A stretch of DNA of 62,643 nt, the filler included, from Globobulimina sp. (lineage: Eukaryota), in NCBI GenBank assembly GCA_003354225.1. It is 23 parts of 23 records of this genome, joined end to end, with 100 filler letters (N's around TTAATTAATTAA, not from the genome) between each part and the next. Parts side by side here need not be neighbours in the genome. Positions count along the whole stretch, not along the records: positions 38,200 to 40,827 come from PIVH01005637.1; 22 more parts are not named here. One strand, 5' to 3'. Shown here piece after piece: positions 38,200 through 51,735 of the stretch. Every line of letters starts with the position of its first letter. Position 1 is the first letter of the stretch. A model generated the notes under the pieces. The model was not told the origin of the DNA. It worked only from the letters and a program-made list of their open reading frames with translations, and did not search any database. A program made the position numbers and the translations under genes.

Positions 38200-40827
38200 T
38201 TTATGTTGAATTAATAAATAATAAATCAATGCATATAAATCTTTAATATTAATATTTTCCACATTGTTAAATGAATAAAATGAACATTTTTGTAATAATA
38301 ATTTGTATTCATTTAATATTTTATTATTATTAAAATTATCAAAAGTATGAATTCTGGATGCGACAAATGGCAGAAATTCAACATATCTCTGTTTAGAAAC
38401 GCTTGTAAATTTAAAAAATGGTGCCATAAAATGTGGTGATACCATATTATTGAACATGAGTGGCATTTTGGAGTTGATTAAAAATTGGCAAATAATTTTG
38501 GGAATATTATGATACAAAGAATATGAATAAATTACATTGTCATAAATACAATTTGTTGATAATAATTCAATTAATGAGTTATAAAAATGTTTATCTTTTA
38601 ATTTCCAATAAATTCTACGCAATCCATTCAATTTAACAATGATTTGGATATTATTTTTTGATAAATAATTTAATATATTTGCGTTTGTTCCAATCACTGA
38701 TATTTCCCGCCATAACACCATATTTTGCTTATTTTCTGTTTGTCGGTGTTTTTTGGTCACAGTTAATTTTTGTGGTTGGCTAAATGTCACAGTTTGTTTT
38801 TTTATGGACTTACAAATTAACACAGAATGACTGTTAAATATTCCATTTTGGGGGAAATAAAAGTAATAAACAATTGATTTTGTTTGATATGAAGAAATAT
38901 TCATAAAATATGATTTATTGTACATGGCATTTTTAACAGGAATTGAACCATTTGGAATACTGATAAAGACCTGTAAATTTTGATGAATTGAAGAAATATT
39001 TGTTAGTATTATTCGAACTCCATAAATTTTATGACATTGAAAATTATCTTGATTTGGATCTATAAATTTATCATATTTTTCATTATTTTCATAATCAATT
39101 ATACGTAAATCGTATGGATCGAAATATGATATGTTTATATTTATTGATGACTGCTTATTGTTGCTATTAATATCAATTTTACTCAATTTTTTAATAAATA
39201 TTAATGATTTATTATCTTTGTAGCATTTCAATTTTAAATCGTTATCAAAGTATTTATAAATGGGACCGTCATTATTATTTAATGACAAATCTAACACAGA
39301 TAAAGCAAATAAAATTTCTGTGATAGTATGCGTTGCAAATAATAAATTTGTAGATACAAATTTCGCATTTTCTTTTTTATGCCTATCATTTAATGCAAAT
39401 AAACCAAAATCACACCAGAATTTATTTATTTTTACTAAATCCTTTGTATTGTGTTCAAATTTAGCATTAAAATAATATGTTTCTTGATATTCTTTTGTTT
39501 TGTCAATTTGTTGAAACAACATAGGCACAAATTCATTAACATTTCTTCTTACAAATAAATCAAAATTATGCTGTGTTTCATCAAATGCATTCACTATAAT
39601 CGGTCGAAAAACGTTATTAAATTCATTTTGTTTTGCTTCATATTCATCTCTATCCGCATTTGGATTGTTGTCAAGCCATTTAATTGCATTCTTTATAATA
39701 CCTTTTAATTTATTCGCATCATCATCACTTATATTAACATTATTTTTTAAATTATCATTTAAATAATTCCTTACTTCATACACCATATTTTCTAATTCAT
39801 TCTTCGATTCAACAGTTCGTCTTTTATCTTCGTCCGCGGCTTTATATTTTTCTGCATCCGCCACAATTCGATTAATTTCTTCTTCGCTCAACCTACCTTT
39901 ATTTTGATCAATTGTAATTTTATTACAATTCTGCAATGGATTACTCATATCCTTTACTGATACCATCAAAATCCCATTGGCATCCAAACCAAATGCAACC
40001 TCAATTCTTTGTGTATCCATATTATTTATTTGCAATTGCAATCTGCCCAATAAATTATTATCAGACACTCGTTGTCTTTCACCTTCATAAACATTTATAA
40101 TCAATACTCCGTCGACAGCTGTGTCCCCATCAAATTCATTCATATTAAATATTGCCACAGCTTTACAAGGGATTGTTTTATTGCGTTCAATCACTTTTGT
40201 CATAACACCGCCGGCTGTTTCAATGCCTAACGATAAGGCCGTAACATCCAATAACAACAAATCCGCGGCATCGCCCATAGCATGGCCCGATAATATCGCC
40301 GCCTGTACACTGGCACCATATGCCACCGCTTCATCCGCATTAATGGATTTACACAATTCTTTACCATTGAAATAGGTTTGCACCATTTGCTGGATTTTGG
40401 GTATTCGAGTACTGCCACCAACTAATAATATGTCATCAATATCCGATTTCGCCATTCGTGCATCATTCAGTGCCGCATCAATCATATTCACTGCTTGCCT
40501 GAAATGTGGCATACATAAATCTTCGAATCTTGCTCTGGTTATACTCGATGCAAAATCAATTCCATTAAATAACGAATCCACTTCAATATCTGCTCGAATC
40601 GCAGCTGATAATGTCCTCTTTGCGCGTTCGCAGCAGTTTTTCAACCGCCTCATTGCACGCAAATTTGAAGTCAAATCTATCTTGTTTTTGCCTTTAAATT
40701 CTTTAACAAAATGAGCAACCAATATATCATCAAAATCATTACCACCCAAACGAGGACAACCTGCAGTTGCTTTCACTTCAAATACGCCGTCGTCAATACT
40801 CAACACTGCGATATCCAATGTGCCGCC
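38200..40827 (-). CDS. Chimeric ORF: divergent Hsp70 (NBD C-half, SBD, lid) fused to an unrelated ~460-aa region; both ends truncated
   Basis: FEVKATAG..LGGNDFD, CERAKRTLS, ITRARFEDLC, VGGSTRIPKIQ, DEAVAYGA; no EEVD; open frame continues into LFQQIDKTKEYQETYY..INKFWCDF..EILFALSVLDL. Confidence 0.88.
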
Positions 40828-49108: not shown

Positions 49109-51735
49109 CCACTATACCCCCCACTATGACCCCAACTATGTCCCCATAACACAGCCAATAATGGATGAACTATATGAACTGGAGAACAGTGACCAAACCT
49201 ATGACAGTGACGATGATGTAATCATAGTCATACCCCCGCAAACGCCGCACACTCCACCGGCCCGCACCTACATTGCTGAGGAAGACGAAAAAAGAGCTGT
49301 TGATAATACATCACCGCGGTGCAATACATTGAACACCAATAAAAAAGCCAAATACCACTCCGTGGAGCTTGCCATTTCCTATGCAAACCAAAACAGTGCC
49401 CCTGGATATGATGGCATCAAATCTGTGCACCTCAAAACCAACGGCACCTCCATAAATGAACTACTATGCATAATGTTTAACGTCTGGAATAAGTCATACT
49501 TCATCCCATATTATTGGAGGCTGGGCACTGTAATACCGATACTAAAAACAAAAAATGGCGACACGCCAAACCAGTACCGACCCATCACTCTGTTACCTAT
49601 TATATTTAAAACATATGAAAGATTAATCCTTTGGGAGATGAGCATAAAACACAAATTCAGAAAAAATCTACATACATTACAAGGCGGCAATAGATCGAGA
49701 AGAGGCGTCCCAGAGCAGATTGGTTGCATCAATTTGATTGCTGAAACTGCCAAAATGAGAGAGATCTCCCTTTACTGTGCCCTCCTTGATATCAGAAAAG
49801 CCTTTGATACTGTTTGGAGAAAGGGGCTCCTCTATAAACTAAATAATCAATTCAAAATACCACTGCATCTCTGTAAAATAATAACTGCCATTTATGATAA
49901 TTCTCAGTCTGCCATCCGAGACCTACCCTTCATAACAAATAAATTCTTGCTCCATAATGGTGTGCTACAAGGGTCTGTTTTGTCCCCTGTCCTCTATGCA
50001 GCTTTCTTAAATGATTTAATTGAGGAATTGCAAAATTCAAATTGTGGCGCTGCCTCGCCTGACCCCGATGAGCCGATTGCTTGTACTTTTTACGCGGATG
50101 ATATCATACTGACTGCGAATAAAATCTCCCATTTGAATAAACTATTAAAAATCTGCCAAAACCACAGCAACCATTGGCGCTACCAATTTAACCACAAAAA
50201 ATCAAAAACAATAATATATAATGACAATACCCTCAATAACAACAACATAAATACATATAATATAAACGATATAATGCTAATAAATCACGAATACCATAAT
50301 TCAAATAAAATAGACAATAATAAACCTGCCCCAATGATAATAATTCAAAAACCTATAAATCACCAAGTGCTGGCGATAAATATCAATAATACATTGCTCA
50401 AATACGATATAGACGAAATCCCACAAAAACACTTGCAACGATTCATAGATCACGTCAAGTTCTACGGTGATATTAATAATAAGCCATATCCAATAATGTG
50501 GGACAACATAAGATATGACCGTGACTATACACCGTCTGTAATGCATTTAAAGCTACGCCTCAATGGAGAAAGTCTACACTGCACAACATTCATCAGATAT
50601 CTCGGTGCTATGTTGTGCAGCTATGACAACACCAACTTGGTGTCCACGAAGTATACGAATACGGCTTTCCTCAAAAAACTTGACTTAAAAGCTTACATTT
50701 TAGGAAAACTGGATTTTAATCATATATTTATCTCCCTCGCTGACAAAATACGCATACTAAAGACATTCTATTTAGTATATACGGAGATATTTGCTCAAAT
50801 TCTTGATTGTGATACAATCAAACTAAAGGAGGCTACAGACAAACAACTAAAAACTATCCGCACACAGACACAAATAAAAAACTTCGTCCCGGCGCAGCTC
50901 TATCTTTGGGCGGGTATTCCAACACCATATGAACGGTGGGTGTCACTCAAAATGTCCTTTTATTGGAAATTGTTGAAAGGAGGAAATATATCCATGATGC
51001 ACAAATGGGCAAAAATGACCCACATCCACCACCATAAACTCTTCAAACAATATATTGATATAAAAAATAAATGGCTCCCAGCAACACCACAAACCATAAA
51101 CAACAAAACAGTCTGGACAGACCCCTTTGATATTGTTTCACATTCACACGAACTAAAACCATTAATTGTGAAGAACCAACATATACAAATCATTAATGCA
51201 TTAAATTATTATCATCCAATCAAAATCCTAAATCATATCACCGATAACTATAAACCAATGAATTGCTATGAAATCAATGAATTGGCTGATTATGTAAGAA
51301 TTGAAATGATCTCAGTTTATAGAGAGTTATTCTACAATTTCAACACAAAAAATAATTACTGCCATCTTTGTCATTCTGCAACCAATGTCCCCATTGAATA
51401 TCATCTGACTGTGCTCTGCCCAAATCTAAACATACTGAGACATGAATACTGGAATCATGCCTCTGCAACATTTGCAATAAGCGGTGCTGCAATAAATAAA
51501 ATACACCATCACCTATATATGCAACGACTAATTGAAATGTGTCAAAATGTCAATCTACAAAAAGCCCAATTTTGGAAGATCCTCTGTGGTGCAAACATCT
51601 ATAATACTACCACCAATAAGTTTGCCTATGCACACCAACAAATAAATATTAATACAAACAAACATACTTTATACAAAGAAGTAATATCCCAAACTCATCG
51701 TTGGCTCACTCACACACTCGATATAAATAATGGGA
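49109..51735 (+). mobile_element. Non-LTR retrotransposon ORF2 fragment (RT + C-terminal CCHC), both ends truncated
   Basis: SAPGYDGI, YRPITLL, LDIRKAFDTV, GVLQGSVLSP, FYADD, RYLG, CHLC..EYHLTVLC; uninterrupted frame. Confidence 0.93.

Follow-up and report, generated by a model that had tools for sequence, protein, structure and literature searches.

What is an Hsp70 doing in one open reading frame with part of a very large, otherwise unrelated protein? This question is raised by positions 38200-40827 of the 62,643-base stretch from the Globobulimina sp. assembly GCA_003354225.1 that was analysed here (the window). These positions are exactly one whole contig of 2628 bp (PIVH01005637.1). It is a fragment of a real in-frame chimera, in which a cytosolic Hsc70-type chaperone is followed by the C-terminal third of a CAGE-type protein. 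The window itself consists of 23 concatenated contigs of 2627-2629 bp each, ordered by length. Between them lies a six-frame stop spacer flanked by filler (N44+TTAATTAATTAA+N44), which gives 44 runs of exactly 44 N. Adjacent 'genes' are therefore unrelated contigs without synteny information, and the frame discussed here is truncated at both ends by the assembly.

Chaperone and junction in one open frame

The reverse complement of the contig is open in frame 1 from end to end, with 876 residues and zero stops (Table 1). In the second half of the frame the GC content is 0.20-0.27. At this composition an estimated ~9% of random codons would be stops, so that approximately 460 open codons represent coding sequence rather than chance. 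A first interpretation of the DNA made without database searches (the sequence-only reading) had described one frame with an Hsp70 followed by about 460 residues. This description is accurate, except that only the second half of the nucleotide-binding domain (NBD) is visible. The second part was also said to be much more AT-rich. This holds for its composition, but the change is gradual: GC content at third codon positions (GC3) falls from 0.32-0.41 (NBD) through 0.30 (substrate-binding domain, SBD) and 0.19 (lid) to 0.13-0.24 (C-terminal module), with no step at the junction. Contigs from sequencing runs extend beyond both ends: X3 record 24 and X6 record 31 pass 40827, and 588 of the 2695 nt of X1 record 1 are placed on the contig.

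Residues 1-411 match Pfam HSP70 (PF00012) over profile positions 195-594 of 599 (E 2.3e-114; 383.2 bits against a Pfam cut-off of 20.6). The best relative of solved structure is human HSPA1A (7kw7_C, residues 202-607, E 3.3e-128). Since HSPA1A outscores BiP, Ssb, mortalin (mitochondrial Hsp70) and DnaK, the Hsp70 is of the cytosolic type. It shares the lobe II motifs, the DLLLLDV linker, the beta core of the SBD and the helical lid with cytosolic Hsp70/Hsc70 (HSPA1A/HSPA8). In contrast to these proteins, it has neither the Gly/Met/Pro-rich tail nor the terminal EEVD, two loops of its SBD are changed, and more than 460 residues of CAGE module are attached C-terminally. The missing GGMP/EEVD tail had been recognised from the DNA alone; the frame passes from the end of the lid, RPIIVNAF, straight into the module and extends over another 461 residues. 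The two loop changes, noted at the same time, are equally real in the alignment to HSPA1A, where one loop is lengthened (NMNEFDGDTAVDGV) and the other is replaced by QINNMDTQR. We take them to be L3,4 and L5,6, which in DnaK/Hsc70 make up the arch spanning a bound peptide, together with the support of this arch. Thus, neither canonical L3,4 and L5,6 loops nor the EEVD motif for tetratricopeptide-repeat (TPR) co-chaperones is found in this Hsp70.

Calling the Hsp70 degenerate, as the sequence-only reading did, is nevertheless overstated. Two loops are altered, but LVGGSTRIPK, DEAVAYGA, DLLLLDV and GIETAGG are intact, and synonymous variants outnumber non-synonymous ones in this half (see below). 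With its adenosine-binding and hinge motifs preserved, the Hsp70 looks like a working rather than a decayed protein. Furthermore, a contig from X6 (record 31) matches 39974-40827 at ~93% and is gapless over both odd SBD loops. Hence, the unusual Hsp70 has an orthologue in another study. In a further run, X2, the summed depth reaches 230-530 over 40312-40487 (around LVGGSTRIPK), compared with ~9 elsewhere. Most likely, Hsp70 genes of other abundant organisms pile up on this conserved stretch.

The junction, which the sequence-only reading placed near 39550-39600, is bridged by contigs from two runs. One of them, X1 record 3, has 1231 nt and extends over 38963-40193; the other, X3 record 18, extends over 39394-39665. 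The depth in X1 is alike across the junction (6.9, 7.8 and 6.7). Both contigs were made by an assembly pipeline different from that of the window. Because they come from one sample, this excludes an assembler-specific error but does not add independent reads. In X2, which belongs to an independent study, both halves are present at 95-99% identity. Its contigs end at 39546 and resume at 39607; the gap (39547-39606) is uninformative, because the loose end is sequencing adapter. In X6, from a third study with sequences 90-95% alike, the module contig runs up to 39543 and continues with letters that match 39568-39582, the DETQH codons after the lid. This seems to be a relative without the eight codons NFDLFVRR (39544-39567), in frame. 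The X6 relative also skips 21 codons, MYNKSYFMNISSYQTKSIVYY (38863-38925), in the conserved beta-sandwich of the module, a skip that would remove core strands, and it carries a 6-nt insertion behind 38792. All three length differences are in frame.

An artefact of assembly, in which separate loci or separate organisms supplied the Hsp70 gene and the CAGE-like gene, is highly improbable in our view. Such an artefact would suit the very short contigs, the different GC content of the two halves and the origin of the bridging contigs from the probable source sample. Against it stand the bridging by a separate assembler in two runs at equal depth on both sides, the uninterrupted frame, GC3 values without a junction step, and the loose X6 end that runs from the module into the codons after the lid. 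Moreover, relatives with the same kind of fusion are found, including one on a genomic contig (P0157, see below).

Among the 40 best-supported of 145 variant positions, pooled over four runs, the Hsp70 half has 13 synonymous and 9 non-synonymous changes and the module 10 and 8, with no stop in either. Random change would be synonymous in about one case in four. Both halves therefore look constrained. At the level of DNA contigs the fusion is confirmed as real, and it may be expressed.

Table 1. Features of the 876-residue frame, listed in coding order with their positions in the window
Feature	Residues	Position	Strand	Basis or remark
Hsp70 NBD, second half, starting with GGTLD at about Hsp70 residue 202	1-188	40264..40827	-	Pfam, structure-sequence alignment
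LVGGSTRIPK, intact		40396-40425	-	inside NBD
DEAVAYGA, intact		40312-40335	-	inside NBD
Interdomain linker DLLLLDV, intact		40243..40263	-	alignment to HSPA1A
Hsp70 substrate-binding beta domain, GIETAGG loop kept	196-312	39892..40242	-	alignment to HSPA1A
Longer NMNEFDGDTAVDGV in place of TYSDNQPGV, insertion of 4-5 residues		40105-40146	-	alignment to HSPA1A
QINNMDTQR in place of GIPPAPRGVPQ		40006-40032	-	alignment to HSPA1A
Hsp70 helical lid, ending in RPIIVN(AF)	313-413	39589..39891	-	Pfam and alignment
Junction, AFDETQHNFDLFVRRNV	414-430	39538..39588	-	replaces the tail of Hsp70 and the long, disordered linker of CAGE
Module start, LFQQIDK-TKEYQETYY/NKFWCDF/EILFALSVLDL helices	431-549	39181..39537	-	by position second piece of CAGE1 domain 11 and part of 10
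TKEYQETYY		39472-39498	-	motif
NKFWCDF		39406-39426	-	motif
EILFALSVLDL		39286-39318	-	motif
Ig/macroglobulin-like beta-sandwich with IPNGSIP and FYFP, pLDDT >90	550-693	38749..39180	-	by position CAGE1 domain 12
Helical region, cut by the contig end	698-876	38200..38736	-	by position CAGE1 domain 13 and start of 14

The contigs of the window have GC contents of 0.30-0.46. Several of the others carry long open frames, the longest with 875 codons at 49109-51735. A tblastn search with eleven family members as queries found no further pieces of the module family on the other 22 contigs.

The module and the CAGE family

No Pfam family is found in the last 463 residues. When this part was searched alone, an exhaustive HMMER search returned 1152 proteins at E<=1e-3, 193 of them at E<=1e-30. 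Among the best 150 matches the full-length proteins mostly have 2030-2450 residues and are matched at about residues 1350-1900. Named matches belong to Desulfobacterales, Riflebacteria, Planctomycetota, the dictyostelid Tieghemostelium (2275 residues) and Paramecium. Of 600 pattern matches in scanned prokaryote genomes, 562 encode relatives; 80 loci were kept, mainly from Planctomycetota and Verrucomicrobiota, but also from Lentisphaerae, Kiritimatiellia, Desulfobacterota, Myxococcota and Riflebacteria. The sequence-only reading had connected the motifs TKEYQETYY, NKFWCDF and EILFALSVLDL with very large proteins of Planctomycetes, myxobacteria and protists. All three motifs are present in frame, and the kinship is borne out by the relatives from Planctomycetota, Myxococcota, Tieghemostelium and Paramecium.

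Canonical members start with an N-terminal region of ~1340 residues. It is followed by a low-complexity linker of ~60-100 acidic and basic residues, the QLYQEI..TKEYQET module and ~300 further residues, by which the relatives exceed the end of the module on our contig. Around bacterial genes of this type no conserved neighbour was found; the commonest cluster occurs at 10 of the 80 loci (L002-L081) and varies in position and strand. Three canonical bacterial members had no match in NCBIfam or PADLOC, and Pfam gave no family in the canonical parts of the scanned relatives. The ESM Atlas returned only unnamed clusters from Planctomycetota and Eukaryota. None of 61 pattern matches in a metagenome scan with a single-protein query was a relative, and with an alignment of the family (A2) none of 124 matches in prokaryote genome contigs and none of 181 in viral contigs was confirmed. 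The metagenome scan with A2 yielded one locus, L001.

These properties agree with the CAGE proteins, as described in the main text of a recent preprint (bioRxiv 10.1101/2025.09.22.677704). CAGE1-3 of Tetrahymena have 1890-2418 residues, and the Dictyostelium member is AbpF. The proteins form a hollow homotetramer of ~1 MDa with a cavity of ~600 nm3 and unknown function (structures 11KS/11KT; Tetrahymena protein I7MLD7), and the authors raise a role in protein or RNA homeostasis. Pfam or SCOP domains are absent. More than two thirds of the 3521 homologues are bacterial, concentrated in the phyla of the Planctomycetes-Verrucomicrobia-Chlamydiae (PVC) group and in Thermodesulfobacteria, and the eukaryotic holders are scattered unicellular organisms, e.g. 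ciliates and dictyostelids. Bacterial members have signal peptides of 21-22 residues, which the eukaryotic ones lack. For some of the beta-sandwich domains the top match is alpha-2-macroglobulin (A2M), and the authors liken the cage to A2M. Helical domain 11 of CAGE1 comprises residues 1244-1414 and 1519-1559, and the ~100 residues between the two pieces are unassigned. After domain 11 come a beta domain (12), two alpha domains (13 and 14) and another beta domain (15).

The relatives of our module share with this published description the size, the absence of known domains, the taxon spread, the A2M-like sandwiches and the order helical/loop/beta/alpha/alpha/beta. The signal peptides agree as well: by eye, they are present in the bacterial P0158, P0025 and P0033 and absent from the eukaryotic P0167 and P0014. 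On these grounds the module family is very probably the CAGE protein family, matched by published descriptions and not by alignment to I7MLD7 or AbpF. The contig differs from the CAGE proteins in that it shows the C-terminal third only and has an Hsp70 directly in front of it. By position, we infer that the contig carries CAGE domains 11b-14 in its module and that domain 15 would lie past the contig end. Accepting the published domain boundaries, the fusion point would then be the unassigned loop that splits helical domain 11.

Predicted structures fit this assignment. In the AlphaFold model of the contig's module (predicted local distance difference test score, pLDDT, 77.7) a confident beta-sandwich (137-280) is followed by a helical part (285-383). 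A relative with 1141 residues, P0020, was modelled with a pLDDT of 76.1 and a predicted template modelling score (pTM) of 0.65. Before its module there are a sandwich, a helical domain (120-277) and a disordered stretch (275-361, pLDDT <50); the module comprises a sandwich (458-618), a helical part (629-880) and two terminal beta domains (913-1136). This C-terminal order agrees with the domain 11-15 boundaries given for CAGE1 in the preprint's main text.

The usual long linker is gone in the contig; the whole connection between chaperone and CAGE part is no longer than ~15-30 residues, and only ~10 residues lie between the lid and the first conserved helix of the module. This bears on a further explanation, namely that the frame yields two products through an intron that was not recognised, through termination or through proteolysis at the junction. 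In its favour, the coding strand has a GTAAGA at ~39546-39551, many family 'proteins' in the databases start no more than a few residues away from where the module does, and introns split the module in L001. However, the frame has no stop codon anywhere. The conserved N-terminal helix of the module (VRRNVNEFVPMLFQQIDK, cf. RKKVQRLYQKLDK in P0158) begins so soon after the lid that an intron plus a second start could not be accommodated, and the 24 nt missing in frame from the X6 variant are not intron-sized. We consider two separate products very improbable.

Two observations concern other members of the family. L001 (1861-1995 of a metagenome contig of 2259 nt) matches module residues 27-69 only, its other open frames being short, and is apparently a relative from another eukaryote in which introns split the gene. 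One X1 contig matches the region downstream of 39498, while its upstream letters differ and encode ..KQLYQQIEA, the canonical pre-module helix as in P0003 and P0147 from Bolivina. Hence, the probable source sample also contains one or more CAGE-like paralogues that lack this Hsp70 junction.

Foreign domains at the loop in a foraminiferal clade

In a FastTree phylogeny of 181 module segments with Shimodaira-Hasegawa (SH)-like supports, the contig belongs to a clade of 10 rows (support 96). This clade lies inside one of 26 rows (support 98), which includes sequences labelled as Nonionella stella, Bolivina argentea and Reticulomyxa filosa. The source of the contig thus appears to be an AT-rich eukaryote whose nearest relatives in the module tree are foraminiferal.

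That the Hsp70 might occupy a variable position in a large scaffold had been suggested in the sequence-only reading. The smaller clade agrees with this suggestion: seven of the ten rows have a foreign domain above the Pfam cut-off at or upstream of the disordered linker, and paralogues carry ubiquitin, Rab, Snf7, SAM or WW plus MLLE at the position where the contig has Hsp70 upstream of the module. Among the Bolivina sequences, P0002 has its own Met and starts with an entire Rab (Ras, E 1.9e-55), which replaces the N-terminal part. P0147 (520 residues) has Ras (1.9e-48) and P0003 the C-terminal part of Snf7 (1.8e-6), both upstream of the module. In Nonionella P0009 (2399 residues) ubiquitin (8e-27) is found at 1534-1607, between an N-terminal region that ends at ~1516 and a module that starts at 1706. 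The N-terminal part is replaced, again with an own Met, by SAM (1.8e-5) in Nonionella P0044 and by WW (2.7e-6) and MLLE (1.1e-25) in P0157, which comes from a genomic contig of 4256 nt. P0009 and P0044 are 88% identical in the module and are therefore distinct genes, not isoforms. A synaptobrevin-like linker motif in P0180, P0181 and P0044 remains below the cut-off (E ~1e-3), and the Pfam scan found no domain upstream of the module in P0023.

All of the other 16 rows in the larger clade were scanned as well. Only P0038 exceeds the cut-off: it has Pkinase_C at 595-632, behind the N-terminal region and ahead of the module. Its full-length cluster-mate from Nonionella, P0182 (2260 residues), has Pkinase_C at 1338-1375. 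The E-values of this domain, the C-terminal tail of AGC kinases, are 1e-9 to 1e-10, and P0038 (Bolivina) and P0182 cluster at 90% identity. The insert is common to sequences of two species, which points to its retention.

Two types of head can be distinguished. In the first, the CAGE protein is otherwise complete and has the domain inserted in its loop (P0009, P0182, P0180/181). In the second, everything N-terminal of the loop is replaced (P0002, P0157, P0044). Two of the heads show peculiarities. P0147 contains two partial Rab pieces in permuted order, the first without P-loop, the second with P-loop and switch I, which suggests that a tandem array broke internally or that the order is an artefact of assembly. 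In P0009 the ubiquitin retains the LRGG at its C-terminus, with an acidic stretch behind it. In principle, a deubiquitinase might cleave there and so divide the protein in two.

The Nonionella transcriptome holds at least nine family members. In such an expanded foraminiferal family domain shuffling might produce a young or neutral chimera that has no combined function and is possibly decaying. The number of members and the permuted Rab pieces of P0147 would be in line with this, as would the early departure of P0003 from the module, the skip of the X6 relative in the conserved sandwich and the strong AT drift of the module half. We regard a neutral chimera as quite unlikely, however, because all 876 codons are open, the listed variants comprise 23 synonymous and 17 non-synonymous changes without any stop, the three indels of relatives are all in frame, and the ~93% orthologue from another study has the same odd SBD loops.

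Proposed role of the Hsp70 head at the cage

The sequence-only reading had raised the possibility of a macroglobulin-like fold. The prediction supports this in part. For the sandwich and the terminal pair of beta domains, the best structural matches are macroglobulin (MG) domains of bacterial A2M and complement (Z 11.0-12.4, root-mean-square deviation 2.1-3.5, 104-183 aligned residues), with bacterial A2M chains as the top four matches to the P0020 model (Z 12.4-11.4). C3, C4, C5 and TEP1 align over the sandwich and the helical domain in the same order. However, unrelated Ig-like sandwiches reach Z ~10, only ~1-2 units lower, and a link by sequence is missing. Kinship with A2M by sequence was rejected, as the family profile found nothing among PDB sequences and hhalign against A2M of E. 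coli (YfhM) gave a probability of 0.2%. There is no Pfam match to A2M, MG or thioester-domain (TED) families in the contig's protein or the scanned relatives, and no thioester motif CxEQ in the contig's helical part. A CG conserved in the bacterial members has no EQ behind it and does not occur in the contig.

Compared with A2M, C3 and TEP proteins, the same series of a disordered variable stretch, an MG-like sandwich, a helical domain and terminal sandwiches is found. A2M and CAGE are both large hollow homotetramers. Differences are the lack of sequence or profile similarity, the absence of a visible thioester, the helical domains that flank the CAGE loop and the small structural margin. Plant NLR proteins with integrated domains and TRIM5-CypA fusions likewise combine a constant part with a position that takes unrelated host domains in different paralogues. 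In contrast to these, no NB-ARC, NACHT or LRR was matched by Pfam in the contig's protein or any scanned relative, and the scanned CAGE-type proteins have no TRIM or other immune-receptor domain.

From these likenesses an integrated bait or decoy could be derived. The CAGE loop would correspond to the bait region of A2M and the inserted host domains would be lures, whose cleavage or modification by an enzyme of a pathogen or prey triggers or loads the cage. Microbial proteases attack several of the head proteins. The loop shows disorder and differs in length between members, and the heads are stripped of their own anchors and handles: C-terminal cysteines are missing from the Rab of P0002, a membrane span from the SNARE-like motif and EEVD from the Hsp70. 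The ubiquitin of P0009 keeps LRGG. The MG-like sandwich behind the loop, the matching domain order in C3, C4, C5 and TEP1 and the comparison with A2M drawn by the CAGE authors in their main text (bioRxiv 10.1101/2025.09.22.677704) can be added. Nevertheless, we consider a bait unlikely. In both halves the changes are mostly synonymous, whereas fast change would be expected of a bait. In addition, the lack of a CxEQ motif, of an A2M Pfam family and of any profile match, together with the narrow lead over unrelated sandwiches, speaks against a macroglobulin mechanism.

Instead, we propose a CAGE paralogue with a tethered chaperone head, i.e. a specialised Hsp70 held at the cage, and from the sequence we give this explanation an even chance. 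Foraminiferal CAGE paralogues appear to have repeatedly taken up foreign domains, either in the loop or in place of everything N-terminal to it. The CAGE part would assemble into a cage or dock onto one, and the foreign head would contribute an activity or a recruiting handle. In the present case the head would be an ATP-driven Hsp70 clamp without the EEVD co-chaperone handle and with a remodelled substrate arch. The preserved motifs on the ATPase side and at the hinge argue for a working nucleotide-driven clamp, while loss of EEVD and remodelling of the arch suggest that it is specialised and stands outside the general co-chaperone network. Up to four such chaperones per tetramer may be held at the cage, where they could hold, feed or unfold clients.

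Several points weigh against a tethered chaperone. The remodelled L3,4/L5,6 loops and the lost EEVD fit a non-chaperoning Hsp70 too. P0002, P0157 and P0044 lack the N-terminal ~1400 residues of CAGE and may not build a cage. The contig is cut at both ends, and the visible protein starts in the middle of the ATPase domain, with the first half of the NBD off the contig. X1 and X3 represent one sample, probably the source of the window, so their reads are not independent of the assembly, and the variant count is crude. A search of sequencing runs found no RNA run that contains the contig. Most relatives come from transcriptome assemblies, in which chimeras occur, and the CAGE identity depends on matching descriptions rather than on direct alignment.

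In the manner of Rosetta-stone fusions, the Hsp70, ubiquitin, Snf7/ESCRT-III, Rab, SNARE-like and WW heads come from protein homeostasis and membrane traffic. Such a pattern would be expected if CAGE cooperates with these systems. The set of heads thus points to these processes, in agreement with the suggestion of the CAGE authors in the main text of the preprint. The coherence of the set is our own judgement, and MLLE, SAM and the AGC-kinase tail fit less well.

Hsp70 has long been known and CAGE since 2025; in comparison with the main text of the preprint, what appears new is an Hsp70 integrated in a CAGE paralogue, together with a clade that has diverse domains at one loop. Literature searches and this main text gave no CAGE fusions or integrated domains, although the supplementary tables may list such proteins (bioRxiv 10.1101/2025.09.22.677704). 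The main text reports no fused domains and zero Foraminifera or Rhizaria, and 'fusion' occurs in it only as an instrument name. Literature searches for foraminiferal gene fusions returned nothing relevant.

For the family in Foraminifera, the fusions reveal an unusual expansion with domain shuffling. More generally, the cages of these organisms might be modular machines, in which the loop of domain 11 is a docking port for exchangeable heads (Hsp70, ubiquitin, Rab, SNARE-like, ESCRT-III, MLLE). This wider proposal is tentative and in itself rather unlikely. If it is true, four heads would be placed on or inside a chamber of ~600 nm3. The form with the Hsp70 head would be a new chaperone-in-a-cage or, as a bait, a cytosolic macroglobulin-like trap with lures made of host proteins, and the set of heads would reveal the function of CAGE, in protein homeostasis or traffic. 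CAGE, described in 2025-26, occurs in thousands of bacteria and in protists, and natural fusions are among the few clues to its function that can be obtained from sequences only. The Hsp70, ubiquitin, Rab, Snf7, SNARE-like and MLLE heads would link the cage to protein homeostasis and membrane traffic and mark the loop as a functional port.

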